Virus record (IMG/VR): IMGVR_UViG_3300021963_004241 | Span: 47,182 to 111,181 of that record | Source: a virus | Reading direction: 5' to 3' (one strand) | Length of the DNA stretch: 64,000 bases | Shown here: piece by piece, positions 20,303-35,110 of the stretch | Layout: the number at the start of each line of letters is the position of its first letter | Numbering within the stretch: position 1 is the first letter of the stretch | Position numbers and translations under genes: made by a program | Notes under the pieces: model-generated | Told to the model about the DNA's origin: nothing | What the model saw: the letters and a program-made list of their open reading frames with translations, nothing else | Databases searched by the model: none

Positions 20303-20311
20303 AACATCTCC

Positions 20312-20860: not shown

Positions 20861-20869
20861 TTTATTCTA

Positions 20870-21061
20870 TTACCAATTCTCCACACTAGAAACTACAACT
20901 TCAAACCTCCCAGTTTGATCATTGACTTTTGTCTCTATGGTCATAGTCGTATGACTGCCAATACCAGAACTATTATCCTGAGTAATTTCTGCTACCTCTA
21001 CATCTGGAAACTTTTCAAAAATTTCCATCATTCTTTTGATATCATCTCTATGTAAGTACAT
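20870..21061 (-). CDS. Hypothetical protein
   Basis: Coupled ORF. Confidence 0.65.
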   Translation of the reverse strand: MYLHRDDIKRMMEIFEKFPDVEVAEITQDNSSGIGSHTTMTIETKVNDQTGRFEVVVSSVENW

Positions 21062-21624
21062 TAAATATCTCCTTCACGTTCTCTACGAGCTCTACGCTCT
21101 GCGGCCAGTGTAAAAACTTTTTCGTTGTCGTTGGTCCACTCTACTGTTTTAGGAAGAATGATCCCGAACTCGGTTGTATGACCGTTGATAGTATGGGGCT
21201 CATTCTCGTCATAGGTCCAACCTAGGCACTTCATCATTCGATGCTTGACTAACAGGTTAGGTGATCGAAAAGCCTCGGAATCACGAAAGCCTAACATAAC
21301 ACCTACTTCTGCTACGGCACCAGAACGACATACACCTGCGTGGCAATGAACTACTACGTTCATATGTTCCTCGAGTGCGTGTTGCAGTAGTCGAACAAGC
21401 TCGTCGGCTTGTTCTTGACTGCATCGCATGGTCTCGTCTATTACAAGATCTTTAGCTTCAACGTCGAGAAACTTAAATTGATGTGTTTCGCGAAACTGAT
21501 GTTTAGGTTCTGGAAATTCCATGTCTGGATCAACGATCTGTATGAGCATAGAATTAAAACCGGCATCGATGTGAAATCCTTTTTTAATATCGCTCAAAGA
21601 TACGTTTTGGATCCAGGGATTCAT
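21061..21624 (-). CDS. Cys-based (PTP/dual-specificity) phosphatase
   Basis: VHCHAGVCRS = HCxxGxxR motif. Confidence 0.85.
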   Translation of the reverse strand: MNPWIQNVSLSDIKKGFHIDAGFNSMLIQIVDPDMEFPEPKHQFRETHQFKFLDVEAKDLVIDETMRCSQEQADELVRLLQHALEEHMNVVVHCHAGVCRSGAVAEVGVMLGFRDSEAFRSPNLLVKHRMMKCLGWTYDENEPHTINGHTTEFGIILPKTVEWTNDNEKVFTLAAERRARREREGDI

Positions 21625-21824
21625 TTTAAATTCTTCTTAATTTTATTAATGATATCGTTGGCCTGATCAAAGTTATTGATGCACTCCTCTACGATAATCT
21701 CATTATTTAGGTAATCATAGGCAACGGATTTTTGAAATCTCAAATCCTGTTGCCATTTGATCTTATTACCGATGTAGTCTATCTTAATTCTGTCTGTGTT
21801 CATTGTCGCCGCCTTTTCATCCAA
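21621..21824 (-). CDS. Hypothetical protein
   Basis: ORF in operon; start uncertain. Confidence 0.55.
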   Translation of the reverse strand: MDEKAATMNTDRIKIDYIGNKIKWQQDLRFQKSVAYDYLNNEIIVEECINNFDQANDIINKIKKNLK

Positions 21825-22018
21825 GTGTATTTTGATCCATCTGGTAACAGTCCGTCCTTGACGCTATCGGATCCAAAAACTCCAACTAGTTCAAAATCGT
21901 CTCCATTTATTTTTACAAATAAACCAATTTCTTTTGATCTAGTTAATGCTAATTCTAGAGTGTCTACTTCTTCCTCGCAAGCTCTTCCCCTTGCGTCTTT
22001 CCAATTTACTTTATACAT
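21800..22018 (-). CDS. Hypothetical protein
   Basis: AAGGA RBS. Confidence 0.65.
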   Translation of the reverse strand: MYKVNWKDARGRACEEEVDTLELALTRSKEIGLFVKINGDDFELVGVFGSDSVKDGLLPDGSKYTWMKRRRQ

Positions 22019-22053
22019 TCCTTGATTATATCTTCTTTTTTCATTCTTGTCTA

Positions 22054-22127
22054 TGGTGCTCCCAACTGGTAACGATCCAGTGTTTCTACATTACCAATGT
22101 AGTGTAATACCTTTATACTATGAGAGC
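22054..22127 (-). tRNA. tRNA-Thr(GGT)
   Basis: Cloverleaf, CTACA-TTGGTAA-TGTAG, encoded CCA; ATCGTTA T loop. Confidence 0.9.
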
Positions 22128-22757
22128 CGAAAATTTTTCTACTAGTTCTCTATGTGGTCGGATTCCAGGATGGCAGTTATCCGGAAAATCTTCAGACCAT
22201 TTCATTTGATCTAAGATAGTTTTGTGATCTTTTAAAAGACGGTTTTTAAACTCTAAACTGTCTGCGGATTTTTCTATGAGGTCCAAATGACAGAGTGTAT
22301 GTACAGTTGGAAATTGTTTGCCAAAAATAGAACTGCGCCAATCAGGAATCACAAAATCTGCAGATGTTATCTCATAGAAACAATCTAATAATTTTGCCTG
22401 TCCACCAATGACTAATGTTTTAGCCGAGGTGAACTTTTTAAGTTTATCAAATTCCTGATAGATTATTCTAGAATTACTTTCTATAACATCATTTATAAGG
22501 AATGATTTATCAGCATCGAAAAGATTCCTATCTCTTAGAGATTCTGTGTGAAACCAAATGATCCAATCTATTTTAGATATTAAATGATTCTTTGCTGAAC
22601 TAATCGATGCTAGATTAGATCCGCCATTGTTAGCACAGTTGTAAACTGTGTACCCTAGATCTTTTAGTAGAAATTCTGTATGGTATTTTGCATCAACTCC
22701 GGGCGGTCCGTAGTAATTTGGGACCCCCCAACTGTCGCCTAATATTAATATGTTCAT
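22113..22757 (-). CDS. SGNH/GDSL-like hydrolase
   Basis: GDSW, GGSN, DNCHP (DxxH). Confidence 0.7.
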   Translation of the reverse strand: MNILILGDSWGVPNYYGPPGVDAKYHTEFLLKDLGYTVYNCANNGGSNLASISSAKNHLISKIDWIIWFHTESLRDRNLFDADKSFLINDVIESNSRIIYQEFDKLKKFTSAKTLVIGGQAKLLDCFYEITSADFVIPDWRSSIFGKQFPTVHTLCHLDLIEKSADSLEFKNRLLKDHKTILDQMKWSEDFPDNCHPGIRPHRELVEKFSALIV

Positions 22758-22768
22758 GTGGATATTTA

Positions 22769-22843
22769 TGGCCTCCCCAGTAGGAATCGAACCTACAACT
22801 AAACCTTAGGAGTGTTTTGTTATATCCATTTAACTATAGGGAG
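22769..22843 (-). tRNA. tRNA-Arg(CCT)
   Basis: Loop CTCCTAA, CCA end. Confidence 0.9.
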
Positions 22844-22847
22844 AATT

Positions 22848-22924
22848 TGGCCTGACTGGAGGGACTCGAACCCCCGACCTACAGCTTAGAAGGCTGTTGC
22901 TCTATCCAGTTGAGCTACAGTCAG
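22848..22924 (-). tRNA. tRNA-Arg(TCT)
   Basis: ACAGC-CTTCTAA-GCTGT. Confidence 0.95.
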
Positions 22925-22929
22925 ATATT

Positions 22930-23003
22930 TGGAGCGGGGTAAGAGAATCGAACTCTCCGCATCAGCTTGGAAGGCTGAGGTATTACCACTATACGAACCC
23001 CGC
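22930..23003 (-). tRNA. tRNA-Gly(TCC)
   Basis: TCAGC-CTTCCAA-GCTGA, TCCA end. Confidence 0.95.
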
Positions 23004-23021
23004 ATAGATATTACTGTAGCA

Positions 23022-23432
23022 TCATCTTGATTTTTCTGCAAGTTCTTTATAACCTGCCCAGCTAGGATGTATTGAATCTTTTTGTAAACGATCTGTTTTA
23101 ATGATAGTATCTCCTCGGCTTCTTGCGATTATGTTAACGATATCATTAACGTTGGGTTTACAGAACTTGTCATTACAAGGCGGCAAGATCCAGAACACTT
23201 TATCTGCTTCTACTCTGGCCCGCATAGCAGACAATTCTTTAAAAGTATGAACACCAGAATGGTCATTAGTTCCGAGACTGATGATAACTGTGCTTGCTGC
23301 TATATTTTTTTCAGCAAACTTTTTATTCCAGCCCCAACTGTTGATCCCGCCAACACTGTAACTAACGCATTCTTTCCTTACGTTAGCTGTTCCTACTGCA
23401 ATACTGTCGCCTACGATTAAACATTCTAACAT
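23022..23432 (-). CDS. Minimal SGNH hydrolase
   Basis: GDSI, LGTND, DSIHP. Confidence 0.8.
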   Translation of the reverse strand: MLECLIVGDSIAVGTANVRKECVSYSVGGINSWGWNKKFAEKNIAASTVIISLGTNDHSGVHTFKELSAMRARVEADKVFWILPPCNDKFCKPNVNDIVNIIARSRGDTIIKTDRLQKDSIHPSWAGYKELAEKSR

Positions 23433-23443
23433 ATATTATCCTT

Positions 23444-23519
<76 letters not shown>

Positions 23520-23568
23520 ATTGAGACACACTACTTATCCTATTATACGCCATGTGTCAGGGCGAAAT

Positions 23569-23645
<77 letters not shown>

Positions 23646-23750
23646 AATAGATTTAGGGCACAACAACTAAAAGTATCTACAATACTAATGTCATCTTTGT
23701 TATTTAAAATGAGCACAATAACGATGCGTCAAGAGTGCTATTCCCTAAAA

Positions 23751-23826
23751 TGGTTGCAGGGGAGGGAATCGAACCCCCGACCTCAAGGTTATGAGCCTTG
23801 CCAGATACCGCTTCTAACACCCTGCG
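23751..23826 (-). tRNA. tRNA-Met(CAT), initiator-like
   Basis: CAAGG-CTCATAA-CCTTG; C1:A72 mismatch. Confidence 0.85.
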
Positions 23827-23830
23827 TCAA

Positions 23831-23974
23831 ACTTTTGTTAATGGTACAGTTTACTACCCTCTTGCTACCTATTGTTGATCTGTTACACAGACCATTTACT
23901 AGTATCATAGGCTTTCCGCTTTGGGCAAGGTTAGCTGTGTACATTAGCCCACGAGCTGTACCATTAACAAAAGT
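23831..23974 (-). ncRNA. Candidate structured RNA closed by a perfect 19-bp inverted repeat
   Basis: ACTTTTGTTAATGGTACAG (23831-23849) / CTGTACCATTAACAAAAGT (23956-23974). Confidence 0.5.
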
Positions 23975-24178
23975 GTCTAGCTACAGTTCCCTGTTCCGCC
24001 CTAGACTGAGTTGTCTACCCTGTCGATCAGTATTTAAATTTTTGTCGCCAGTTCTGCTTCTGCCGCCACGGTGTCTCAAGTCGCCGAAAAGGCCTTGGGG
24101 TCGATTACCGTTTGCACCCTGACGTTTTGGTGAAGTCAATTACCCCCTTTAATAACGAGGAAGGGACCCCGGGGTCTG

Positions 24179-24751
24179 TTAGATTAATCCTTCTAGTTGA
24201 AGAGTTGCAACAACTTCATCGCTGAGAGGGATCTCAGTTTTGATGTTTAACTCAAGAACTTCATCATTCAAAGATTGTTTCTGTTTCTTGAGATCATTTA
24301 ATTGAGCACGGAAACGATCAATGTCTCCTACTCGCAACACACTGGTTTCAACAGTGTCACCGTAGCCATAGATACGACTACGTGCTTCGTCTTTCAAATT
24401 CTTGATCTTCTCAAGTTTGCCTTTGACAACTTCGATGTCAGTGACAGTGTCACGACCAACGATTTCAGTCAGTTGTGCAACACGCTTGTCGATGAAAGCT
24501 GCTTTAGTCAGCTTAAGATCGATTCCGCTTTCGGCATTTGCGGCACACACTAGTCCGCGAATGTTGTAAAGGGCAACCAACAGGTTAGTCCTTCGGAGAT
24601 CATTTTCCAGCATCTTCTGATTGGCTTTTTCAATCTCAGCTTCTGGATTTTGAAATTCGTTGAGAGTTACATTGAACTCTACTTTGATATTTTTAACGGC
24701 ATCGTTGATGCTGTTTTGAATTGCATTTGCTTTACGTAATGTTACTTTCAT
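24179..24751 (-). CDS. Coiled-coil hypothetical protein
   Basis: 190-aa helical ORF, GAGG RBS. Confidence 0.8.
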   Translation of the reverse strand: MKVTLRKANAIQNSINDAVKNIKVEFNVTLNEFQNPEAEIEKANQKMLENDLRRTNLLVALYNIRGLVCAANAESGIDLKLTKAAFIDKRVAQLTEIVGRDTVTDIEVVKGKLEKIKNLKDEARSRIYGYGDTVETSVLRVGDIDRFRAQLNDLKKQKQSLNDEVLELNIKTEIPLSDEVVATLQLEGLI

Positions 24752-25040
24752 TTGTGCCTCTCTATGTTAACGGGTCGGTAAAGGGTCAAGTAATAGACCG
24801 GACAATTGACAAGACCTATTGTGCGATGTCGTCGGTCTGGACAATATGCAATAGACAGGCTACAGAGACCTGAATATTTCCGATTAGCAATTGACAGGTA
24901 TATAAGAATCGGTTCACTCAAGCACGAACAGTTTTCAAGACTGTTTGCCAGGATTAGTTCGTATTCGCTTATGGGCGAAAACGATTGTCTATTCTCTTCT
25001 ACCCTCTACTTCACCGGCTTTGGTATTACTACCTCAGCAA
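24752..25040 (-). ncRNA. Long structured leader RNA with repeated TGTCWATTG motifs
   Basis: Promoter at 25045-25072; ends can pair (GTAGAGGGT/ACCCTTTAC); four motif copies. Confidence 0.5.
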
Positions 25041-25044
25041 AACT

Positions 25045-25072
25045 ATTATAGTTGATTTAAAACTAATGTCAA
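25045..25072 (-). promoter_or_regulatory. sigma70 promoter
   Basis: TTGACA-16-TATAAT. Confidence 0.75.
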
Positions 25073-25099
25073 CCAGTTGTCTTAAATTTTTCTTTATTT

Positions 25100-25175
25100 T
25101 GGCTCCCCGGGGAAGGATCGAACTTCCGACCAATTGATTAACAGTCAACTGCTACTACCGCTGAGCTACCGGGGA
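25100..25175 (-). tRNA. tRNA-Asn(GTT)
   Basis: GTTGA-CTGTTAA-TCAAT. Confidence 0.93.
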
Positions 25176-25182
25176 ATGTGTT

Positions 25183-25256
25183 TGGTGCCCCTACACAGAA
25201 TCGAACTGCAAACTACGGATTACAAAACCGTCGTTATACCATTTAACTATAAGGGC
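25183..25256 (-). tRNA. tRNA-Thr(TGT)
   Basis: Loop TTTGTAA, ACCA end. Confidence 0.9.
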
Positions 25257-25262
25257 GAAACT

Positions 25263-25430
25263 TTACTTACTTCTTGATTCTAATGTCCTGATTCTATTTT
25301 GAATCTTGCTCTTGTCTTTTGGACGAGAGCTCTTTTCTAACATCTCACGTAATTGTACTAGATTAAGTGGTCCTAGTCTAGTCTTTCCTGTTTTTGTTTT
25401 CATTGGATCTGCATGATTTGTTTTTGACAT
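25263..25430 (-). CDS. Small basic protein (55 aa, MSKTNHADPMKTKTGKTRLGPLN...)
   Basis: GAGGA RBS; read by eye. Confidence 0.65.
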   Translation of the reverse strand: MSKTNHADPMKTKTGKTRLGPLNLVQLREMLEKSSRPKDKSKIQNRIRTLESRSK

Positions 25431-25444
25431 ATTATCCTCTTATT

Positions 25445-25520
25445 TGGTGGAGGTAAACGGGATCGAACCGATGACCTTTAGCTTGCAAAGCTACTGCTCT
25501 CCCAGCTGAGCTATACCCCC
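25445..25520 (-). tRNA. tRNA-Ala(TGC)
   Basis: G3:U70, loop TTTGCAA. Confidence 0.95.
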
Positions 25521-25990
25521 ATTGTGTACTTATAAACGTTTTTTTCTACTGGTAACCATTCCGGATTTTCTAAAGGATCAAAATATTTAGAATCGTATTC
25601 TCCAGAATATATAACACAATCATTTTTTACTAACAAATCTTTATTACCAGAAAACTTGGATAGATTTAAGTATCCTAGTTCTCTGTTTCTTACACACATA
25701 TTCCAAGCCATTCCTGCTAAGAATATTCCATCGACGGTATCGTCATCTAGTAAGAATTTAATCTCATCGATAGTAGTGGCGTAAATTTTTTTACCTTTAA
25801 GATTACATACTATAGAAGATGCTTTCTTGTTATCGTATGCAGCTATGACTATAGTGTCGATGTCATTTCTCGATTCAACGAATCTTTTGATATTTCTCAA
25901 CACAGCATAATGCGCTGACAACGGAAAAAGTAAAATATTAATCCAATCTAATTCCCAGGGATCTATAATTATTAAAATCCTCTTTTTCAT
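25511..25990 (-). CDS. Isochorismatase/cysteine-hydrolase-like protein
   Basis: IIIDPW and AGMAWNMCV motifs. Confidence 0.55.
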   Translation of the reverse strand: MKKRILIIIDPWELDWINILLFPLSAHYAVLRNIKRFVESRNDIDTIVIAAYDNKKASSIVCNLKGKKIYATTIDEIKFLLDDDTVDGIFLAGMAWNMCVRNRELGYLNLSKFSGNKDLLVKNDCVIYSGEYDSKYFDPLENPEWLPVEKNVYKYTMGV

Positions 25991-25998
25991 TAGACGAG

Positions 25999-26181
25999 TT
26001 ATTCTTCTGCTTTGTCTTTATTTCGAGATCTCGACGATACTGGTTTAATCAACGCAGCCATCTCGGCTTGTATCATTGCACGTTTCCACTGAGCCTTTTT
26101 GTGAGGATCTTGAAACTTAGACAATGCTAAACTTGTCTTTAGAGGTTTTGACATTCTATAATTAGCGCCTGGTTTTAACAT
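25999..26181 (-). CDS. Small basic hypothetical protein
   Basis: AAGGA RBS before MLKPG; the longer track ORF runs into the tRNA. Confidence 0.65.
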   Translation of the reverse strand: MLKPGANYRMSKPLKTSLALSKFQDPHKKAQWKRAMIQAEMAALIKPVSSRSRNKDKAEE

Positions 26182-26201
26182 ATTTTTCCTTTTTAAAAAT
26201 T

Positions 26202-26296
26202 TGGCGGAGTGTATTGGATTCGAACCAATGATGCAGGTTTTTGCCCACATGCCTTCTTAGCAGGAAGGTGCCTTCGACCAACTCGGCCAACACTCC
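26202..26296 (-). tRNA. tRNA-Ser(GCT)
   Basis: CCTTC-CTGCTAA-GAAGG, long variable arm, GCCA. Confidence 0.93.
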
Positions 26297-26302
26297 AATG
26301 TT

Positions 26303-27907
26303 TCACTTGAGATACTTTCTTTCCCAGGTTTTATAATCTACATCCTGGAATATATTTTCTTTTAACCATTCATAATTATTAGGTAAGTCATCGCTGATTA
26401 AATCGTGCTTTACTTCTCTCGAAGTAAAATAATGACGTCCTAAGTTCAACTGATTTTTAGTTATCGAATCTTTCTTAAATTTAGATAAATCTAATTTCCA
26501 AGAAGCCGCTAACTGCAACCACATATATTCTGCAAATAATGTCCAATGGTCTTTAGCATTGGTTATGGAATTTCTTCCATCGCTATACTTTTGAAAAATC
26601 AAATCTTCGTGACGTTCTTTGTCGCCGATCGATCGCATGTCGTTCCAAAAGTCAGTGTCAGTTCTCTTACTAAGAGTGTAATGTATCTTTATAAAATCTG
26701 TTAGATCGTCAATGGTGTATGCCAGTTTCTTATTGTAATTGGACCAATCTAAGTTTCCAGTTTTTTTATATCCGTCTAAACTGTTGATCAATTCGTATAT
26801 TCCACTGATCAAAATGTATAACGCATTTGCTTCTAATGGTTCGTAGAAACCAGAACACAGTCCTACAGTGGCTACGTTACCATTGGCAAATTGTTCTAAT
26901 CTAGCAGGTTTCCAGGATAGCACTCTGGGTTCTAATCTTCTATTAGAATTTAGTTTTTTGTACTCGTCTATAGCCTGTTCAACATCTAAGTGACTAGAAC
27001 TAAAACAAAGTCCACATCCCATCCTATGATATAAACCGATCTTAAACATCCATCCGTTGGGTTGTGCTATCGATTGTGTGTAATTTACTAACTCTTTTTG
27101 TATGTCGTTATATTCTAATTGTGCAACTACAGCAGTATCGATGGCATAATCTTTGTAGGGAATCACATTCCAGTTTAGTGCTTTGACTAACAGTCTCGCG
27201 AAACCAGAAGCATCAACAAACAAATCAGCTGTAACAACTTCTCCATCTTCTAAAACAACGGATGATATTTTATCCTGTTCACATTTTACTTCTATGACTT
27301 TTTTAGAAATATGTTTCACACCGTTCGGTAATGCAATAAAATCTCTTACATAGTCTCCGCATTTATCTGCGTTGATGTGTTGACTCCAGCTGTAAAACTG
27401 ATTAAGTAGATACTTGTCATTTAAAAACGGAGAAACGTTTTTCTCCATGTAATGATATGCACTACTCCAATACCTATCAAACTTGTCTATGGAACCATCT
27501 AACAACAGTTGAGAAAATACATCTGTTGTTTTAACAGTACTCTCTGGATATTTTAAATCGTTGTAGCTGACTAATTCTGAAGTTTCTCTGTACAGCAACT
27601 CTGCTGCGGAAGGATACGAAAATCCAAAATATTCGGATTCATTTTGATCCCCAGTGATCCATCCAGTGAACTTGTTAGCTAATTTATAAACAGCACCAGT
27701 TTCATTCATCCAGTGCTTTGTGTCAATTTCTAGAAAATCAAAAAATCCTTGTACGTGCGGTGTAACACTTTCTCCTACTCCAATCTTTGGAATATCCGGA
27801 GACTCTATCAAAGTGATATTAAATTGATCATAGACTTTTGAAAGAGCTCCTGCTGTAAACCAGCCAGAAGTGCCGCCACCGACTATAACTATATTTTTTA
27901 TTTTCAT
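26303..27907 (-). CDS. Tryptophan-halogenase-family flavoprotein
   Basis: GGGTSGW, IGVGES, YKLANKF (catalytic Lys position), DASGF, FYEPLEA. Confidence 0.88.
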   Translation of the reverse strand: MKIKNIVIVGGGTSGWFTAGALSKVYDQFNITLIESPDIPKIGVGESVTPHVQGFFDFLEIDTKHWMNETGAVYKLANKFTGWITGDQNESEYFGFSYPSAAELLYRETSELVSYNDLKYPESTVKTTDVFSQLLLDGSIDKFDRYWSSAYHYMEKNVSPFLNDKYLLNQFYSWSQHINADKCGDYVRDFIALPNGVKHISKKVIEVKCEQDKISSVVLEDGEVVTADLFVDASGFARLLVKALNWNVIPYKDYAIDTAVVAQLEYNDIQKELVNYTQSIAQPNGWMFKIGLYHRMGCGLCFSSSHLDVEQAIDEYKKLNSNRRLEPRVLSWKPARLEQFANGNVATVGLCSGFYEPLEANALYILISGIYELINSLDGYKKTGNLDWSNYNKKLAYTIDDLTDFIKIHYTLSKRTDTDFWNDMRSIGDKERHEDLIFQKYSDGRNSITNAKDHWTLFAEYMWLQLAASWKLDLSKFKKDSITKNQLNLGRHYFTSREVKHDLISDDLPNNYEWLKENIFQDVDYKTWERKYLK

Positions 27908-27947
27908 ATTTGTATATATTATAGAAAAATAGTTTTCTATAATAAAT

Positions 27948-28046
27948 TGGTGCCTCCGGCAGGACTCGAACCTGCACACTCAGGCTTATCTGGCCTGTGC
28001 TTTGGCGAGGTATAAGCTCGCTTCTTTACCATTAAGCTACGGAGGC
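27948..28046 (-). tRNA. tRNA with TAT anticodon (Ile) and an abnormally long variable arm
   Basis: GCGAG-CTTATAC-CTCGC; ~29-nt variable region containing CAGGC/GCCTG; ACCA. Confidence 0.8.
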
Positions 28047-28051
28047 ATTTT

Positions 28052-28126
28052 TGGTGCATCGTGAGAGGGTTGAACTCCCGACCTTGGCCTTGTAAGGGCC
28101 CTGCTCTACCACTGAGCTAACGATGC
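28052..28126 (-). tRNA. tRNA-Val(TAC)
   Basis: Loop CTTACAA. Confidence 0.93.
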
Positions 28127-28348
28127 TTATTTCTTTTTCCCTATCTCTTTAGAAACTTTAGTTAGATACTGTTTCATTTCTTTATATGTAGGAAAATGAA
28201 GTTTGTCCCCTTGTATCTCAAGTACCCACATTATTTCGTCTGCGTCATGAGGGCTTTCAACTTGTTCTACTACGAAGTCGACATTAGGCAGTTTCTTTTC
28301 AAAGTCCGCCATGTCTTTGGTAAATTTTGCGAAATTAATCTCTTCCAT
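28127..28348 (-). CDS. Hypothetical protein
   Basis: AAGGA RBS before MEEINF. Confidence 0.65.
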   Translation of the reverse strand: MEEINFAKFTKDMADFEKKLPNVDFVVEQVESPHDADEIMWVLEIQGDKLHFPTYKEMKQYLTKVSKEIGKKK

Positions 28349-28357
28349 GATTATCCT

Positions 28358-28441
28358 TGGTGCCCCAGGAGAGACTCGAACTCTCACGCCTTGCGACATT
28401 GGCTTCTAAGACCAACGTGTCTACCATTCCACCACCGGGGC
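28358..28441 (-). tRNA. tRNA-Leu(TAG)
   Basis: TTGGT-CTTAGAA-GCCAA, variable arm. Confidence 0.95.
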
Positions 28442-28449
28442 ATAAATCT

Positions 28450-28477
28450 ATTATAGCAAATTACTTAGCTGTGTCAA
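28450..28477 (-). promoter_or_regulatory. Internal sigma70 promoter in the tRNA array
   Basis: TTGACA-16-TATAAT. Confidence 0.75.
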
Positions 28478-28646
28478 GTCTCTTTTCTAATTTTTTTAGA
28501 GTATCCTTGCGCATTAAGAATCGTCTTTCCTGACTAGGCCTATGAACGACGAGATATTCAACACCATCTATTACCTGCACATCTCGCGTGTTCTCACAAA
28601 CAAATTTTTCGTGATTAAGAATGTTTTCAAAAGTTACAGGCTTCAT
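28461..28646 (-). CDS. Hypothetical protein
   Basis: AAGGAG RBS. Confidence 0.7.
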   Translation of the reverse strand: MKPVTFENILNHEKFVCENTRDVQVIDGVEYLVVHRPSQERRFLMRKDTLKKLEKRLDTAK

Positions 28647-28657
28647 AATTATCTCCT

Positions 28658-28731
28658 TGGGGTGCCTTGGGGAATCGAACCCTCGCCTGCTGATTCACAG
28701 TCAGCTTTGCTACCACTACACTAAAGACACC
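28658..28731 (-). tRNA. tRNA-His(GTG)
   Basis: G-1:C73, loop CTGTGAA. Confidence 0.9.
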
Positions 28732-28737
28732 ATTGTG

Positions 28738-28811
28738 TGGCGGCGGTACCAGGGCTCGAACCTAGAACGACTGAGTCAAAGTCAGTTGTGTTACCATTAC
28801 ACCATACCGCT
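28738..28811 (-). tRNA. tRNA-Gln(TTG)
   Basis: ACTGA-CTTTGAC-TCAGT. Confidence 0.93.
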
Positions 28812-28816
28812 ATATT

Positions 28817-28892
28817 TGGTGCTGCCTCGTGGGATCGAACCACGTTCCTCGGTTCTTCAGACCGGTGCTATGACCACATCAGCTAAAGCAGC
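28817..28892 (-). tRNA. tRNA-Phe(GAA)
   Basis: Loop CTGAAGA. Confidence 0.92.
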
Positions 28893-28897
28893 AAAAT

Positions 28898-28973
28898 TGG
28901 TGGAGGCACAGGGACTCGAACCCTGAACCTACCGGTTAAAAGCCGGTTGCTCTAGCCATTGAGCTATACCTCC
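28898..28973 (-). tRNA. tRNA-Lys(TTT)
   Basis: ACCGG-CTTTTAA-CCGGT. Confidence 0.95.
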
Positions 28974-28976
28974 GTA

Positions 28977-29068
28977 TAGTCCGTATTAGATTGATTTACT
29001 GTGCCAACCCGGACCACACGGAGTACCGGGCGACACTAAGGTTTACCTACCTTCATGCCATTCTCCTA
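28977..29068 (-). other. Mini-ORF MKVGKP* (29056-29036) followed by a pseudoknotted hairpin
   Basis: AGGAG RBS; GTGTCG-CCCGG/CCGGG-TTGGCAC stem; loop TCCGTG pairs with TACGGA. Confidence 0.5.
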
Positions 29069-29150
29069 TTTTAAATTTTTGTCTATCCAAATTAATCCTA
29101 CTACAACCAAAATAATAACTGCGATCGCCCCATTTTGTTTTCTCCTTTAA

Positions 29151-29232
29151 TGGTACCCCTGCCCGGACTCGAACCGGGAGAAACTAACACTCCTTTTGAG
29201 AGAGCTGCCTTTACCAATTTGGCCACAGGGGC
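29151..29232 (-). tRNA. tRNA-Leu(CAA), short variable arm
   Basis: Loop CTCAAAA. Confidence 0.88.
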
Positions 29233-29235
29233 ATT

Positions 29236-29320
29236 TGGTGCGAGCGGAGGGTCACGATCCCTCAATCCCGAAGGCGGCAGATTTTAAGTCTGCTGTGTAT
29301 ACCAATTCCACCACGCTCGC
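29236..29320 (-). tRNA. tRNA-Leu(TAA)
   Basis: GCAGA-CTTAAAA-TCTGC; ATCGTGA T loop. Confidence 0.93.
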
Positions 29321-29327
29321 ATATTTC

Positions 29328-29403
29328 TGGCACCCCTGGAAGGAATCGAACCTCCTACTCCGATGTTCGTAGCATCGTACTCTGTCCAATGAGTTACAGG
29401 GGT
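29328..29403 (-). tRNA. tRNA-Arg(ACG)
   Basis: CGATG-CTACGAA-CATCG. Confidence 0.93.
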
Positions 29404-29405
29404 AT

Positions 29406-29480
29406 TGGCCGGCCTGGAGAGATTCGAACTCCCGACAGCTGGTTTCGAAGACCAGAACTCTTCCACTGAGCTACAGGCCG
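29406..29480 (-). tRNA. tRNA-Arg(TCG)
   Basis: CTGGT-CTTCGAA-ACCAG. Confidence 0.9.
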
Positions 29481-29483
29481 AAT

Positions 29484-29562
29484 TGGTCTGGATGGTAGGA
29501 TTCGAACCTACAACCTCGATCTTCCAAAGATCGCCGTCTACGCAGATTGACATTACACCCAG
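29484..29562 (-). tRNA. tRNA-Pro(TGG), second copy with atypical D arm
   Basis: CGATC-TTTGGAA-GATCG; D loop lacks GG. Confidence 0.8.
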
Positions 29563-29571
29563 GTTAAAGGA

Positions 29572-29795
29572 TTGTAGCCTAGCGTCCTCAGGTTCATCGC
29601 TAGTGTTTACGCATACAGAGCCGGACTTCCTTATGCGGAGGTTTTCCAGGACATGTTACTTGGGCTACTAAGCCAGGCGCTTCCACTTCAGCTACCGCCC
29701 GGAATGGACGGTGGGGAGTCGAACCCCCTCCTGCTCTACATTGTATTAAGTTTCGAACCTTTTTACAATGTGCTTTTTACTTGCTAACGCTACAA
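29572..29795 (-). ncRNA. ~224-nt RNA containing a circularly permuted tRNA-like domain (YrlA/Y-RNA-like topology)
   Basis: Ends pair (TTGTAGC/GCTACAA); internal order T arm > acceptor hairpin > D arm. Confidence 0.6.
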
Positions 29796-29798
29796 ACT

Positions 29799-29873
29799 TG
29801 GTGCCGCAGGGTGGGAACGATCCACCGACCTACGCCTTATCAAGACGTTGCTCTACCACTGAGCTACTGAGGC
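29799..29873 (-). tRNA. tRNA-Ile(GAT)
   Basis: ACGTC-TTGATAA-GGCGT; ATCGTTC T loop. Confidence 0.9.
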
Positions 29874-29883
29874 AAATTTTATT

Positions 29884-29958
29884 TGGTGGTAACGATAGGA
29901 CTCGAACCTATACCTTGCAGCGTATGAAGCTGTTGCACGACCATTATGCTACGTTACC
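29884..29958 (-). tRNA. tRNA-Met(CAT) elongator (Ile2 not excluded)
   Basis: Loop TTCATAC. Confidence 0.85.
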
Positions 29959-29960
29959 GT

Positions 29961-30035
29961 TGGCGGTCCCAAGGGGTAACGATCCCCTTCTTTCAGCGTG
30001 ACAGGCTGATGTGCGTCCATGAACACTTTGAGACC
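29961..30035 (-). tRNA. tRNA-Asp(GTC)
   Basis: TCAGC-CTGTCAC-GCTGA; ATCGTTA T loop. Confidence 0.88.
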
Positions 30036-30041
30036 TAATGT

Positions 30042-30131
30042 TGGCGGAAGCGGTGAGATTCGAACTCACGGACCATTTCTGATCGTCTGTTTTCAAGACA
30101 GGTGCAATAAACCGGACTCTGCCACACTTCC
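30042..30131 (-). tRNA. tRNA-Ser(TGA)
   Basis: Loop CTTGAAA, long variable arm. Confidence 0.93.
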
Positions 30132-30593
30132 TTCGATTTTAAATTTTGTTAGAATGTCTACACTCCAACGATAAGCATAACTAGTGCCATGCTCATTACT
30201 AAAGAATAATTTTTTACTGTGAGGTAGATCCATGTCTAGGATATAGACATGGTCTGGATCAAACTTAGGATCATTGAATCCTATGTAAACTTTTGTATCG
30301 TGTTTCTTAGCTATGTTTTTATAACTGTTATAGAATCGTTCATCAAAGCCAAAGTATCTTTGACCATACATTTCGTAACAGTTTCTTTTCTTAGCATCTA
30401 TAAAACAGATCTTTTCTGTCTCAGTATTGTAAAGAACATAGTCGGGAAATTGATCTCCGTCCTCGTCTCTATGTACGTCTCGGGTATCATTGACTTCCCA
30501 GTTTGTATTAGCGAAGTATTGGTCCATCCATTTCTCCATCTTGGATTCCCATACTTGGCCTACAGCTAATGATTTTCTAAATTTAATTCCCAT
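30093..30593 (-). CDS. PD-(D/E)xK nuclease-fold protein
   Basis: G..WE, FPDY...FIDAKKR. Confidence 0.65.
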   Translation of the reverse strand: MGIKFRKSLAVGQVWESKMEKWMDQYFANTNWEVNDTRDVHRDEDGDQFPDYVLYNTETEKICFIDAKKRNCYEMYGQRYFGFDERFYNSYKNIAKKHDTKVYIGFNDPKFDPDHVYILDMDLPHSKKLFFSNEHGTSYAYRWSVDILTKFKIEGSVAESGLLHLS

Positions 30594-30598
30594 ACTAC

Positions 30599-30627
30599 AG
30601 TGTATAGTATAAAAATTAGTTTGTCAA
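30599..30627 (-). promoter_or_regulatory. sigma70 promoter (leaderless) for the nuclease-like gene
   Basis: TTGACA-17-TACACT with 5 nt to the ATG. Confidence 0.65.
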
Positions 30628-30705
30628 TGGAGCACCGGGTAGGATTTGAACCTACGGTTTTATGGATTTGCAATCCACTGCATTGGGCCTCTCTGCCACC
30701 GGTGC
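30628..30705 (-). tRNA. tRNA-Cys(GCA)
   Basis: GTGGA-TTGCAAA-TCCAT, TCCA. Confidence 0.92.
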
Positions 30706-30710
30706 ATAAC

Positions 30711-30786
30711 TGGTACACGGTACGGGAATCGAACCCGTCTTTCCGCCTTGAAAGGGCAGCGTCCTCGACCGATAGACGAACCGTGC
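30711..30786 (-). tRNA. tRNA-Glu(TTC)
   Basis: CTGCC-CTTTCAA-GGCGG. Confidence 0.93.
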
Positions 30787-30883
30787 ATAAAAACTGCTAA
30801 GGGACACACAGGGCTGTTGTTTAAGAGTGAGCGGCGACTTTACGTAAAAGTCTCCTCCCGCAACTCTCCCATTAAGACTTTAC

Positions 30884-30958
30884 TGGCGTACCCCCAGGGA
30901 TTCGAACCCCGACTAGCAGTTTTGGAGACTGTCGTGCTGCCGTTGACACTAGGGATAC
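30884..30958 (-). tRNA. tRNA-Trp(CCA)
   Basis: Loop CTCCAAA, GCCA. Confidence 0.92.
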
Positions 30959-30964
30959 ATTCTT

Positions 30965-31049
30965 TGGTGGATGCGGCTGGAGTCGAACCAGCAGTGCCAG
31001 AGGCGGCGGATTTACAGTCCACTGGGGTTACCAATTTTCCTACACATCC
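30965..31049 (-). tRNA. tRNA-Tyr(GTA)
   Basis: Loop CTGTAAA, variable arm. Confidence 0.92.
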
Positions 31050-31140
31050 AAAAACTATTCTGAAATACACTGACGACAATATGCTATGCATCCTATTTCT
31101 ATGCGTCTAGGCTGTGGCCAATATGTTTTAGAATAGTGTT

Positions 31141-32024
31141 AAAGCTGAGATTACACTTTAACCAGTAACACCTCGAGCATTATACTGCACCTTGCGAGCA
31201 CAGCTTCTCTCGACATCCACATAAGCCCTTGCGGTACCTATGTCTGCTACCAGCATCGCCGTTTTTAAAGACAGGCAGTAGTCTTGTCGTCATACGCTAT
31301 TCTGTATCATCTATCCCGTTGACCTTGCGAGCCATTCAAGTGCGCTAACACTTTACGAAACTTCCAATACAAACTAGTATCACCTTGCGAGCTTTACTAG
31401 GCTTGATTCACTTGCGTGTCAAGCATTAGATGCTTTTCACGTATGACCGAGGCAGTCTTTGCATTTTTGTGTTGATAGTTGGAATCGAACCAACTGCCGT
31501 CTGTTTAACATACAGATGCTCTACCGAATGAGCTATATCGAACCTACCGTGATGAGCTACCTCTGTTGCTCAATAATCTTTTGGACTACTGAATACAACT
31601 CACCACATACCTTTTGTCTTGCGGACTACTCAGTGATGTTTCACGATCGGTGTCCTGCATCAAAACAGTCCACTAACCATTAACATTGCACACGAGCTCT
31701 TGACTGCAACATCTCGAACCAATGCACTACCCTTTCTCATACCTGTTCGCAAGTTGGTTTTGTTAGGAAGTCAGCACCACCTGTTACTTTTCATACGCCC
31801 AGGTTCCTTACGGCCTGTCGACGCACATTCTTTCCCTAACACTTGCTTCACAGTTACATCCACCGGTCTTATCAGTGAACGCTACCTCGCGGTAGTGAGC
31901 AGGCTTGTTTACGTGAACCATTGCTGGCGCTAGTATGTAGGCATTCTAGCTTTGGCTGTGTCACCACAGTTATTCTTCGTAACGCTGGGCGAACCATACG
32001 CTACAGGACAATAAACTGCCCTAA
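31141..32024 (-). ncRNA. Giant structured ncRNA, GOLLD-like
   Basis: ~880 nt without a credible ORF, more GC-rich than the flanks, six C-GCAA-G plus other GNRA hairpins, own promoter, located in a phage tRNA array. Confidence 0.7.
31470..31543 (-). tRNA. tRNA-Asn(GTT)-like element embedded in the giant RNA (no CCA, bulged acceptor)
   Basis: GCTC-ATTCGGTA-GAGC, TCTGT-ATGTTAA-ACAGA, GTTGG-TTCGATT-CCAAC. Confidence 0.65.
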
Positions 32025-32030
32025 GTCTCT

Positions 32031-32058
32031 ATTATATACAAGTTATTTTACTTGTCAA
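32031..32058 (-). promoter_or_regulatory. sigma70 promoter for the giant RNA
   Basis: TTGACA-16-TATAAT. Confidence 0.8.
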
Positions 32059-32306
32059 TACTTTTTGGTTAAACACTCTTCCCTATGGTTTTAGACAGCG
32101 TCAGGGGCTGAATGAAGAGTGTGTATTAAAGTGCTCTATGTACGCTATGCGCCGCCTTGTTCAGAGGTCGATAGAACACTTTAATACGCTACCATTTTAC
32201 GCATCTAGGTTGTCGCCCTAGACTTACCATCCGGTAGGCCGCCCACATTAGTAGCAAGATTTTTATAGTGCCCTGCAGGGTCGCGTTCCCTATCACACTT
32301 CGCGTT

Positions 32307-32465
32307 CTACGAAAGGTCTTCCTTACGTTCCCGCACTTTGTCTAACGAGTAAAAAAATGTGTTTCTTTTCACTTTAGATTCAATTAATTTCTTAAATTGT
32401 TCTTCAGTTAAAACAAATCCTTCACTGTGCTCAACTTTGTAATCGTCATCTATCTCAAATTCCAT
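32307..32465 (-). CDS. Small hypothetical protein (52 aa, MEFEIDDDYKV...)
   Basis: AAAGGA RBS just after the attenuator terminator; read by eye. Confidence 0.55.
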   Translation of the reverse strand: MEFEIDDDYKVEHSEGFVLTEEQFKKLIESKVKRNTFFYSLDKVRERKEDLS

Positions 32466-32479
32466 CTGTTCCTTTCGGC

Positions 32480-32514
32480 AAACAAAAACCCCAGGGTTTT
32501 TAATCCTGGGGTCC
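32480..32514 (-). terminator. Intrinsic terminator of the putative attenuator
   Basis: GACCCCAGG-ATTAAAAAC-CCTGGGGTT-TTTGTTT. Confidence 0.85.
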
Positions 32515-32537
32515 TTTTGAAGTTTGTGTAGTTTTGT

Positions 32538-32681
32538 TTACGCTACACGATCCTCCGAGGACCCCGATTCTGGTGTACGATCATTAGATAGACTAATCTC
32601 ACATACAGACCAATATGAGGGCATAAAGCCTCCCAACTGGGCTATCTGTTTCGCTTGTCTATGTAACGATAATTGTTTCAT
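32538..32681 (-). CDS. Putative attenuator leader peptide (47 aa, all 20 amino acids)
   Basis: MKQLSLHRQAKQIAQLGGFMPSYWSVCEISLSNDRTPESGSSEDRVA*; lies between tandem promoters and a terminator, and its 3' end forms the antiterminator. Confidence 0.7.
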   Translation of the reverse strand: MKQLSLHRQAKQIAQLGGFMPSYWSVCEISLSNDRTPESGSSEDRVA

Positions 32682-32720
32682 TTGCTTTTCTTTCCTTGTG
32701 CTGTTTCCAGCGATGTTCTT

Positions 32721-32811
32721 ACTATAACAACTGTTAAGAAGCTTGTCAACCTATTTTGGCATTCTTCCTAACCATTGCAAAAATTATAATGTAACTTTAT
32801 TTAGTTGTCAA
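32721..32811 (-). promoter_or_regulatory. Tandem sigma70 promoters heading the tRNA array
   Basis: TTGACA-17-TATAAT (32811-32783) and TTGACA-17-TATAGT (32749-32721). Confidence 0.85.
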
Positions 32812-32893
32812 TCTAAAAAGTACACTATAATGTGGTATTTTTACAACATTCTAAATATTGTACACAGTTATTTATGTTCTGTAAATACACTGG

Positions 32894-33868
32894 ATGATGA
32901 ATTACGAAAAAATTTCTTGGCAGTCTATAAAATCGTTTGGTCAACAAACAATGTTAGATCGTCCACTGTTCAACATAAGTTGGATACTGGGCAGGTTCTG
33001 CAATTACAAATGTAGCTACTGTTGGCCCTACGCCAGAAGCGATCAACAAGACTACCAATCACTTGATGTGTATAAGAATACAATTGATCAAATTAAAAGT
33101 CAAGCCCGTTCGAACGGATTCACAGAGTTCCATTGGAGCTTCAGCGGCGGCGAGCCAACTGCTTATAAACATCTAAATGACTTAGTCAAGTATTTGGACG
33201 AGAAGGAAAGTTCCTATCAAAGTGTGCATATGACTACTAATCTTAGTCCGGGAAGCAAATGGTGGAACACCTGGTGTAGTAATACTTGTTTATTACAAAG
33301 AAGAAGCATCACAGCCAGCTTTCACGAGGAGTTTGCCAAAGAGCAAGAGTTTGGAGACAAGTGTTTGCAACTAATGTATGAGCGTGTGCATGTAACTATC
33401 AATCAAGTAATGGTGCCTGATCGATTCTATGAGCTGTATGAACGCTGCGATCGATTCCACAGGAAAGGTATCAACGTCACATTGAAACCCCAAAGTGATC
33501 CTACTGCTAGCCGTGTAGTAGAAGGGTACACTGACGAAATGATAAAGATTATGCAAACAGGATTTCCCCAAAGATCTGAAGATGAAAATGTATATCAAAT
33601 CCGTTTAAACAACGGAACAACAGATTATTACTTTGATCAAGCAGAAAGATTTAATGCTTTTGGATTTAATAAATTTAAAAATTGGACCTGCAACAGCGGG
33701 TATCAAAGTCTAGTGATCAGAGGAAATGAAGTAAAACGTGCTTACAGTTGCAAAGAAGAACCCTTAGGAACTTTGGAGGATTTCCAAATTTTTAAAGAAC
33801 CTAAGGTCTGTGTAACAGAAACTTGTGTAAGTTCAGCAGACAGTAAAATACCAAAAAGAATACAATGA
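32894..33868 (+). CDS. Radical SAM protein
   Basis: CNYKCSYC, SGGEP, C-terminal Cys cluster. Confidence 0.9.
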   Translation: MMNYEKISWQSIKSFGQQTMLDRPLFNISWILGRFCNYKCSYCWPYARSDQQDYQSLDVYKNTIDQIKSQARSNGFTEFHWSFSGGEPTAYKHLNDLVKYLDEKESSYQSVHMTTNLSPGSKWWNTWCSNTCLLQRRSITASFHEEFAKEQEFGDKCLQLMYERVHVTINQVMVPDRFYELYERCDRFHRKGINVTLKPQSDPTASRVVEGYTDEMIKIMQTGFPQRSEDENVYQIRLNNGTTDYYFDQAERFNAFGFNKFKNWTCNSGYQSLVIRGNEVKRAYSCKEEPLGTLEDFQIFKEPKVCVTETCVSSADSKIPKRIQ

Positions 33869-34542
33869 TTTGGAATCAATACTTTAAATTAGATGAGCAG
33901 GGCAATCGCTGTATGGCCCAGCAGACCTATGAACCGTTAGTTAGCGAGGATGGCAAAACTTTTTGTAAAAACTACGATCAGGATAACGAATACCAAAAAT
34001 TAACAGGATACCCGAGACCTTTGTATACTAGAGAAGTAGTTGATTGGTTTTTTAATAACGAAATCAAATGGTTAGAATTTTTTAAAAATAAACCATATGC
34101 TCCAGAAGTTGTTGACATAGATTTAAAAAATAAAAAGATCTACATCAAATGGTATAACGAAACCTGTAATCAAATTATGTATGGTGGGAAGTTTTGGCCT
34201 AAAGATATTTGGAAACAACAGATAAAAGACATAATTAAAGATCAATACCGAGATGGTGTATACAAACTCACGATGTATCCGCACTGCCATTACATCGATG
34301 ATCAAAATAACATGAGGGCGATTGATTGGTACGGATGTGTTCCTGTATCAGACCCTTTTGTAGAAGCTGTTTACATGGACGGAATCATACACGAGACAGC
34401 TAAATTTAGATTAGACGAAACAGGAGATCAGATCGACCATAGATACAATCTTGAAATCATGTTCAAGAATAGTTTAAGATCTCACGTCCTCTGGGGAGAA
34501 GAAAACATGAGTTTCATTTATAAGGATCTCTTCAATGCCTAA
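33865..34542 (+). CDS. Protein-kinase-like-fold protein (divergent)
   Basis: FCK, NEIKWL, APEV, AIDW; paralogue of 38195-38890. Confidence 0.5.
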   Translation: MIWNQYFKLDEQGNRCMAQQTYEPLVSEDGKTFCKNYDQDNEYQKLTGYPRPLYTREVVDWFFNNEIKWLEFFKNKPYAPEVVDIDLKNKKIYIKWYNETCNQIMYGGKFWPKDIWKQQIKDIIKDQYRDGVYKLTMYPHCHYIDDQNNMRAIDWYGCVPVSDPFVEAVYMDGIIHETAKFRLDETGDQIDHRYNLEIMFKNSLRSHVLWGEENMSFIYKDLFNA

Positions 34543-35110
34543 GTATGTAGGTTCCACTGAAAATTTAATAGACTGGGGAAGCATTGTAAAAATATGCAAG
34601 TCCAGGAATGATGGTGACTTTAATTCTGTAACCACAGTAGTTGATAGATCTGAATCTAGCTGGCAGGAGGATCAGGATCTGTTAGGGTCTTATAGAGAAG
34701 TTATAAAAATTTGGACCGATGCTGGATATGCCTTAGAAAAAATACAGTGGTACGATTACTATCCAGGAACTCATTTTGATATAGAGGTACAAAATAAATT
34801 TGCAGATCTAGTCAATGCAGATCCAAGAAGGGTATTTGTTAGCGAACTATGGCCAGGCCGATGTGTTCCATACCACTGGGATGTAGAAGACAAAGAGAAA
34901 GAATGGTTAGCCGAAGGCGATCTAGTTCGTTACGTTTGCTTTATGGAGAAGCCTCAATTTGGTCATGTGTTGATAATTGAAAATGATATTTTTTATAATA
35001 CCAAACAACACGATGTATGGGAATGGGACAACTATAGGAATTGGCATGCTGGAACTAATTGTGGTTCAGAGCCCTATTACCTATTTCATTTTTTAGGAAA
35101 ACCTAGATGA
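34535..35110 (+). CDS. 2OG-Fe(II)/cupin oxygenase-like
   Basis: PGRCVPYHWD...WHAGTN (HxD...H). Confidence 0.7.
   Translation: MPKYVGSTENLIDWGSIVKICKSRNDGDFNSVTTVVDRSESSWQEDQDLLGSYREVIKIWTDAGYALEKIQWYDYYPGTHFDIEVQNKFADLVNADPRRVFVSELWPGRCVPYHWDVEDKEKEWLAEGDLVRYVCFMEKPQFGHVLIIENDIFYNTKQHDVWEWDNYRNWHAGTNCGSEPYYLFHFLGKPR

Follow-up and report, generated by a model that had tools for sequence, protein, structure and literature searches.

A candidate translation-sensing attenuator with an all-amino-acid leader at the head of a phage tRNA array

Anatomy of the locus and its relatives

We describe a candidate transcription attenuator on the minus strand at positions 32,480 to 32,811 of a 64,000-nucleotide (nt) stretch of viral DNA, hereafter the window (positions 47,182 to 111,181 of IMG/VR record IMGVR_UViG_3300021963_004241). 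The window comes from an IMG/VR viral contig of 111 kb with an estimated completeness of 31% and a G+C content of 38%. To our knowledge, the regulation of phage tRNA genes is largely unknown. The purpose of the near-complete tRNA sets of large phages is itself debated, with codon compensation and escape from tRNA-cleaving defenses having both been proposed. In the window, a short leader open reading frame (ORF) lies near two promoters, and a terminator stands between this ORF and a region of tRNA genes; both are features of a ribosome-mediated attenuator. The parts of the locus are listed here, with S1, S2, and S3 denoting the three RNA strands of the proposed switch.

32783 to 32811, minus strand: promoter P1, TTGACA-17-TATAAT, 12/12 matches to the sigma-70 consensus
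32721 to 32749, minus strand: promoter P2, TTGACA-17-TATAGT with an extended -10 TG, 11/12 matches; its -10 box ends 39 nt 5' of the leader ATG
32693 to 32697, minus strand: Shine-Dalgarno-like AAGGA, weak and distant, 11 nt 5' of the leader ATG
32538 to 32681, minus strand: leader ORF of 47 codons and a TAA stop, with the set of 20 amino acids complete by codon 36
32558 to 32565, minus strand: S1, the antiterminator 5' strand GGGGTCCT, within the leader ORF (codons 39 to 42)
32519 to 32556, minus strand: inner antiterminator pairing, GGAG/CTTC and GTGTAG/CTACAC, whose loop contains the TAA stop (32540-32538); minimum-free-energy fold
32508 to 32515, minus strand: S2, AGGACCCC, the shared strand, with S1 (antiterminator) or S3 (terminator) as partner
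32484 to 32516, minus strand: intrinsic terminator AAGGACCCCAGG/CCTGGGGTTTTT, 12-bp stem, 9-nt loop, and U-tract, -18.6 kcal/mol
32307 to 32465, minus strand: first gene 3' of the terminator, preceded by a good Shine-Dalgarno sequence and encoding a conserved protein of ~52 amino acids (aa) that belongs to no known family
22054 to 32058, minus strand: target region downstream, a GOLLD RNA that has a promoter of its own, followed by 30 tRNA genes on the same strand, which together serve all 20 amino acids

The leader ORF starts 39 and 101 nt 3' of the two promoter -10 boxes, and the 52-codon ORF on the far side of the terminator begins 18 nt 3' of the U-tract, making the 52-aa protein the first product of read-through. 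The GOLLD RNA is preceded by a further promoter with 12/12 matches at 32058-32031 (minus strand). A first-pass annotation of this DNA had pointed to two near-consensus promoters 5' of a 47-codon minus-strand ORF with all 20 amino acids in its first 36 codons, and both are as it described them. Its caveat that the ribosome-binding site is weak and distant also stands.

A BLAST search of the locus against 50,697 cultured-phage records returned no homologue. Relatives were instead found in IMG/VR through two independent short DNA anchors, namely, the terminator pattern, with matches in 114 viral contigs, and the motif TGATCGYACACCAGAG within the leader ORF, with at least 120 matches, eight of which were chance matches and were removed. 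Combined, the anchors yield 137 distinct sequences, all from uncultured phages; the complete records of these phages span ~340 to 365 kb. The amino acid content of the ORF has no bearing on either anchor, apart from the residues D, R, T, P, and E specified by the second. Within 150 nt 5' of the ORF, 130/137 relatives carry a promoter scoring at least 11/12. In 37/137 (e.g., L171, L181, and L194), the -10 box ends merely 6 to 10 nt 5' of the leader ATG, which implies a leaderless mRNA; other relatives have a leader of 40 to 65 nt with AAGGA 12 to 18 nt 5' of the ATG.

A same-strand tRNA gene lies 218 to 1055 nt 3' of the terminator (median, 472 nt) in 124/137 relatives, while the other 13 extend just 66 to 1564 nt downstream (fewer than 620 nt in 12 of them). 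A same-strand tRNA array is found 3' of the element in every relative with enough DNA. Across the relatives, 1835 tRNA genes downstream of the element are on the same strand and none is on the opposite strand, and most relatives have no tRNA gene upstream of it. Directly 3' of the terminator, most relatives encode a conserved protein of ~50 to 60 aa with the motif HTLT.EQ..KLI.DK.ERAR. No consensus promoter was found in the interval between terminator and first tRNA gene in 89/124 relatives.

Translation and composition of the leader ORF

The leader ORF is kept open throughout the family. An ATG-started ORF of 35 to 54 codons is present in 137/137 relatives, with TAA as the stop in 129, whereas alternative frames over the same span contain 3.7 stops on average and just 1.8% of them are open. 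The encoded peptide itself does not show the pattern of a conserved protein. The three codon positions are conserved to the same degree (0.64, 0.67, and 0.66 for positions 1, 2, and 3), and the conserved core of S1, GGGTY, is read in frame 0, 1, or 2 in 68, 62, and 6 relatives. Whatever the frame, the ORF runs through S1 in every relative and stops 7 to 30 nt past it, leaving the stop codon 17 to 31 nt 5' of S2. Since the ORF always traverses S1 in differing frames, it appears to be the passage of a ribosome that is preserved rather than the encoded residues. Together, the lack of codon periodicity and the reading of S1 in three frames suggest selection on translation and composition and not on the peptide.

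These observations bear on one alternative, that the leader is an ordinary small-protein gene with its own terminator, in which case the peptide would be functional in itself and the terminator would merely end the gene. Gene callers do predict a hypothetical protein here, and some residues are fixed in position across the leader peptides (the Trp, a DRTPE motif, and a stretch resembling AKQAGFMP). However, third codon positions show no relaxation, relatives differ in the frame in which the C-terminal part is read, and neither the leader nor the downstream 52-aa protein has a match in Pfam, PHROGs, or the ESM Atlas. Moreover, the peptide is under-dispersed in composition (W, H, C, and Y each number about one, at moving positions), the 5' arm of the terminator covaries with a strand inside the ORF, and the element is always sited before a tRNA array. 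We consider a small-protein gene very improbable as an explanation of this locus.

All 20 amino acids are encoded in 122/137 leaders (89%), 19 in 14 leaders, and 18 in 1, and even two leader versions of 35 residues hold the complete set. Comparison of this diversity with random windows, which the first-pass annotation had put forward as a check, shows how unusual it is: among windows drawn from the long ORFs of the window itself, all 20 amino acids occur in 1.9% of those of 47 residues and in 0.14% of those of 35 residues. Random peptides drawn multinomially from the family's pooled composition are complete in 3.7% of cases (maximum, 10%). We also ran a tree-aware simulation in which alignment columns evolve independently on the family tree with their own frequencies and a fitted rate per column; on average 19.6% of simulated leaders were complete, with a maximum of 42% in 300 runs. 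The completeness of the leader is far beyond chance by all of these controls. Trp, His, Cys, and Tyr each occur about once per leader, with strongly under-dispersed counts (variance/mean of 0.07 to 0.2). While the position of Trp is fixed, Cys is spread over ~25 alignment columns and His over ~15, yet Cys is absent from only 5/137 leaders and His from 0/137, against simulated expectations of 31% lacking Cys and 24% lacking His. That rare residues shift position and still persist argues for selection on their presence. No leader contains a run of a single amino acid; the whole alphabet takes its place, a variant of the regulatory codons of classical attenuators. In the zone at least 9 nt 5' of the S1 core, all 20 amino acids are encoded in 88/136 relatives and at least 19 in 125/136.

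We asked whether codon choice in the leader also follows the tRNA genes downstream. The first-pass annotation had counted a cognate codon for 26 of 29 phage anticodons and had read the codons as mirroring the tRNA set down to isoacceptors. The count is close, since by wobble pairing the window leader has a codon for 25/28 distinct phage anticodons, the same three (Thr-GGT, Arg-CCT, and Arg-TCG) being missing, compared to a mean of 19.2 in real 47-codon windows (P = 0.004; P = 0.017 against windows already holding all 20 amino acids). Under strict Watson-Crick pairing, however, the match falls to 16/28 anticodons, no better than in ordinary genes (P = 0.34), and phage tRNAs can decode the same share of codons in the leader as in the genome on average (0.87 versus 0.85). 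Isoacceptor mirroring is therefore modest, visible in the wobble coverage and in a small excess of decoding classes, whereas exact matching is not significant. That excess amounts to 28.9 decoding classes per leader versus 26.8 under synonymous resampling and is consistent (95% of relatives lie above expectation) but small, in sequences that are related to one another. Both Leu codon boxes are used in 113 relatives versus 88 expected, and both Arg boxes in 110 versus 79. In addition, leaders strongly avoid NNT codons in 4-fold boxes relative to the phages' own genes (ACT, 0.09 versus 0.37; GCT, 0.05 versus 0.30), and codons ending in C or G are enriched.

Exclusive RNA folds and the proposed attenuation mechanism

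When the window RNA is cut before the 3' arm of the terminator, its minimum-free-energy fold is the three-part hairpin that the first-pass annotation had drawn (GGGGTCCT/AGGACCCC, GGAG/CTTC, and GTGTAG/CTACAC), with the TAA stop in its loop. The strand AGGACCCC is common to this antiterminator and to the terminator AAGGACCCCAGG/CCTGGGGTTTTT, in keeping with the annotated sequestering of the terminator 5' strand. The same holds in the family: in 136/137 relatives, pairing of S1 with S2 belongs to the minimum-free-energy fold when the RNA is cut before S3. An inner hairpin of varying sequence is also seen in relatives. The first-pass annotation had suggested comparing the two conformers; in full-length RNAs, the energy difference between terminator and antiterminator is -1.6 ± 2.5 kcal/mol, with 70% of the RNAs falling within 3 kcal/mol.

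Covariation supports both folds. In an alignment of 136 sequences, 96.6% of S1:S2 cells are paired, as are 99.6% of terminator cells (132 distinct sequences), and pairing in both elements exceeds that in all 500 shuffles and in all slid registers. The invariance of the terminator in the first set of relatives is an artifact of the anchor used, and its variation stems from the second set. One S2 column is paired with S1 as GC in 76 sequences, AU in 38, and GU in 6 and with S3 as CG in 86, UG in 27, and UA in 19; the triplet states of this column are G-C-G (80 sequences), A-T-G (25 sequences), and A-T-A (13 sequences). Furthermore, S2 variants outside the terminator core are compensated in S1 (GAAC/GTTC, AGAC/GTCT, GGAAC/GTTCC, and CGGGACCCC/GGGGTTCCG). 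Since S2 covaries with both S1 and S3, the two folds are mutually exclusive alternatives of one RNA.

Such a switch might instead be a structured noncoding RNA or be controlled by a ligand or protein, with a factor other than the ribosome setting the fold and the ORF being incidental. This alternative is in line with the near-equal energies of the two folds, with conservation lacking a three-base periodicity, and with conservation of the motif ATGATCGYACACCAGAG at the nucleotide level. On the other hand, it leaves the frame open in 137/137 relatives versus 1.8% of alternative frames as a coincidence, together with an ORF that runs through S1 in any frame, a fixed ATG, and a stop placed between S1 and S2, and selection on composition is meaningful only if the ORF is translated. 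With gathering thresholds, a search of positions 20000-35000 against Rfam 15 returned nothing but GOLLD and tRNAs; at E values up to 1, positions 32250-32900 gave no credible match, and there was no consensus structure 5' of S1. We therefore regard control by a factor other than the ribosome as quite improbable. A T-box or other riboswitch was likewise rejected, as the locus has no Rfam match.

We propose that ahead of its tRNA array the phage likely carries a transcription attenuator that is operated by the ribosome and is under selection to sample all 20 amino acids. The first-pass annotation had advanced a translation-sensing attenuator with an all-amino-acid leader, and the complete ORF in 122/137 relatives, the covariation, and the tRNA arrays downstream all agree with it. 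The comparison with related arrays that it had suggested points the same way, as the leader ORF is open in 137/137 relatives, its composition is conserved, and the antiterminator pairs covary. In the proposed mechanism, host RNA polymerase would initiate at the consensus promoters and transcribe the short leader ORF, within which S1 (GGGGTCC) can pair with S2 (GGACCCC), itself the 5' arm of the terminator. A ribosome keeping pace with the polymerase would cover S1 or have just left it, standing over the last codons and the stop. With S1 occupied, S2 would pair with S3, and transcription would terminate before the small downstream gene and the tRNAs. A ribosome lagging anywhere in the first ~36 codons would leave S1 free to pair with S2 before S3 is made, permitting read-through into the array. 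In the zone sensed in this way, every amino acid would be represented, and Trp, His, Cys, and Tyr usually by just one codon each. Transcription of the tRNA array would then rise if decoding of any one amino acid slows or any class of tRNA is damaged, and the outcome would be a homeostatic feedback on tRNA supply. Accordingly phrased, the phage probably makes more tRNA whenever any amino acid is decoded slowly. The direction and size of this response are what we infer, and its natural trigger may be a shortage of tRNA, cleavage of tRNA, or general translation stress.

The spacing of stop codon and terminator fits this mechanism. With the stop codon in its A site, a ribosome should, going by general footprint dimensions, cover the RNA from about the 3' edge of S1 to a few nt past the stop. 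Such a footprint would make S1 unavailable while S2, 17 to 31 nt beyond the stop, stays free for S3. In E. coli, terminator efficiency is below 10% when the terminator lies 5 bp past a stop codon and ~90% at 28 bp (PMC4824070). Given these efficiencies and the stop-terminator spacing of 17 to 31 nt, a ribosome keeping up with polymerase should give termination. Control of the pyrBI type, in which a close ribosome melts the terminator, was rejected for the same spacing, the stop being 17 to 31 nt 5' of the terminator stem.

The same anatomy could also report general ribosome availability or initiation, for example, when ribosomes are saturated late in infection, with the full amino acid set having no sensing role. 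When the ribosome is absent, the RNA is predicted to adopt the same S1:S2 fold and to be read through, as there is no fourth strand, and this geometry, which gives read-through without any ribosome, suits an availability sensor. So do the 37 relatives that look leaderless, where initiation may be limiting, and the placement of some amino acids at or beyond the edge of the sensing zone. What such a sensor leaves unexplained is the retention of 20 amino acids far above both the tree-aware and the composition-matched expectation, the rare residues that move but are kept, and the excess of decoding classes over synonymous resampling in 95% of relatives. We hold a sensor of ribosome availability to be unlikely.

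Several observations nevertheless weigh against an attenuator that samples all 20 amino acids. Translation of the ORF is deduced from its conservation, and the Shine-Dalgarno sequence in the window is weak and distant. In most cases the set is completed by the Glu codon of DRTPE, at a median of 8 nt 5' of the 5'-most paired base of S1, so that a ribosome stalled there may partly cover S1 and not every amino acid would be clearly sensed. Amino acids missing from leaders show no correspondence with tRNAs missing from their arrays. The covariation resides mainly in one column, with the number of independent events counted on a poorly resolved tree. RNAalifold found neither a consensus structure nor a conserved pause hairpin in the ORF 5' of S1 in the relatives. 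Just 5' of S1, the motif ATGATCGYACACCAGAG (32569-32585, minus strand), encoding N/Y-D-R-T-P-E, is conserved at synonymous positions too, which points to a role at the RNA level, such as a pause site or extra pairing. Finally, the strong internal promoter at 32058-32031 can express GOLLD and the tRNAs of the window without read-through, as the first-pass annotation had cautioned for internal promoters.

A broader interpretation is possible, though on balance we doubt it. The leader might act as a gauge of the whole tRNA pool, so that loss of any tRNA would induce replacement tRNAs along with co-oriented RNA-repair genes (the Rnl1-type ligase), amounting to an inducible counter-defense and translation-homeostasis regulon of giant phages. 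Causes of tRNA loss under this interpretation could include host anticodon nucleases, phage-induced host shut-off, and unmet codon demand. The link to anticodon nucleases is speculation, its sole supporting context being the Rnl1-type RNA ligase gene 3' of the array. If the proposed attenuation is real, tRNA supply in these phages would be under feedback from decoding speed itself, and the leader would illustrate, in a natural setting, how selection can act on what a peptide is composed of and not on the order of its residues. The leader could also be used as a small, portable readout of translation elongation that covers all 20 amino acids.

Comparison with known systems and neighboring features

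The element would be a variation on an established type of regulator, and its output, a phage tRNA array, would be one not reported before; full-text literature searches returned no description of leader-peptide control of phage tRNA genes. The closest published mechanism is the upstream ORF (uORF) attenuator of mycobacterial whiB7, where efficient translation leads to termination and stalling leads to read-through (PMC10274678). In Mycobacterium smegmatis, the whiB7 uORF encodes 19/20 amino acids; experiments have demonstrated that its amino acid content determines which starvations induce read-through, and deletion of its Trp or His codons removes the matching response (PMC10274678). Both systems have a long, diverse, promoter-proximal uORF, a Rho-independent terminator, and an alternative antiterminator. 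The likeness is one of working only, with no sequence similarity and no homology implied or found. Whereas the output of whiB7 is a transcription factor for drug tolerance and alanine homeostasis, that of the phage element is a tRNA array. The whiB7 uORF is also alanine enriched and variable between species, with several amino acids absent in Mycobacterium tuberculosis, while the complete set of the phage leader is conserved (89% of 137).

The phage element shares with the trpL, hisL, leuL, thrL, pheL, and ilv leaders a short ORF and exclusive hairpins with a shared strand, the fold being selected by ribosome position. Classical leaders, however, contain runs of one to three cognate amino acids, in contrast to one or a few codons of every amino acid in the phage leader. 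They also possess a fourth strand, whose 1:2 pairing causes termination without translation, whereas the phage element has three strands and read-through is expected. Finally, classical leaders govern amino acid synthesis, and the phage element would govern tRNA supply.

The nearest published physiology is that of the trn operon of Anabaena sp. PCC 7120, a silent array of 26 tRNA genes induced by translational stress (PMC8421152, PMC10272220). As proposed for the phage, an accessory tRNA array is turned on when elongation is impaired. Control of the trn array differs, being exerted at the promoter by the ribbon-helix-helix repressor TrcR, and the system is cellular, not viral (PMC10272220). 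The paper on TrcR control makes no mention of a leader peptide or of attenuation (PMC10272220).

In DNA polymerase sequence, the cultured phages nearest to this one are Sinorhizobium phage Phosso, Agrobacterium phage Atu_ph07, and the E. coli jumbo phages of 350 kb, with 44 to 51% identity. Atu_ph07 (MF403008; DNA polymerase 47% identical) has the same architecture before its main tRNA array. Its 42-codon ORF (AUZ95228.1) contains an inner strand, CCGGTTCCG, that pairs with the terminator 5' arm CGGAACCGG; the ORF stop ends 28 nt 5' of that arm, and the first tRNA gene follows ~200 nt downstream. Atu_ph07 differs in the sequences of its switch strands and in encoding 18/20 amino acids (without Cys and Leu), and its leader is annotated as a hypothetical protein. 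A pattern search for relatives of the Atu_ph07 switch returned Atu_ph07 alone, a single case, and comparison of its leader with the composition of its array gave no specific match. Within ~2.5 kb 5' of the array heads of Escherichia phage Turkey3, Sinorhizobium phage Phosso, and Vibrio phage 2.275.O, there was no analogous element. Together with the consensus sigma-70 promoter and intrinsic terminator of the phage element, the Atu_ph07 analogue makes the idea accessible to laboratory or cell-free testing.

Upstream of the element in the window lies a divergent gene with a CxxxCxxC motif, radical-SAM-like (32894-33868, plus strand), which has 316 relatives in IMG/VR at ~75% identity. The DNA upstream of these 316 relatives is not homologous to the locus and has no tRNAs within 4 kb. 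Because these upstream regions are unrelated, the junction of this gene with the tRNA region is lineage specific. On the other side of the element, the match to GOLLD RNA (Rfam RF02032, 225.6 bits) covers 31142-31606 (minus strand) and probably reaches ~32024, with a tRNA-Asn gene embedded in it (31469-31542). GOLLD is also found inside the arrays of relatives L135 and G001 (L082), and its position is not fixed. Two extra matches to the Rfam tRNA model, which ARAGORN did not call, lie at 27951-28046 and 29488-29561 (both minus strand; 59 and 36.5 bits, respectively). The tRNA array of the window is further interspersed with a gene of the tryptophan halogenase family (558 aa; PF04820, E = 7.7e-89) at 26303-27979 (minus strand). 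On the same strand 3' of the array, positions 18263-19162 encode the T4 Rnl1-type RNA ligase (PF09511, E = 3.8e-11), and a UvdE endonuclease gene lies at 7323-8348 (minus strand).

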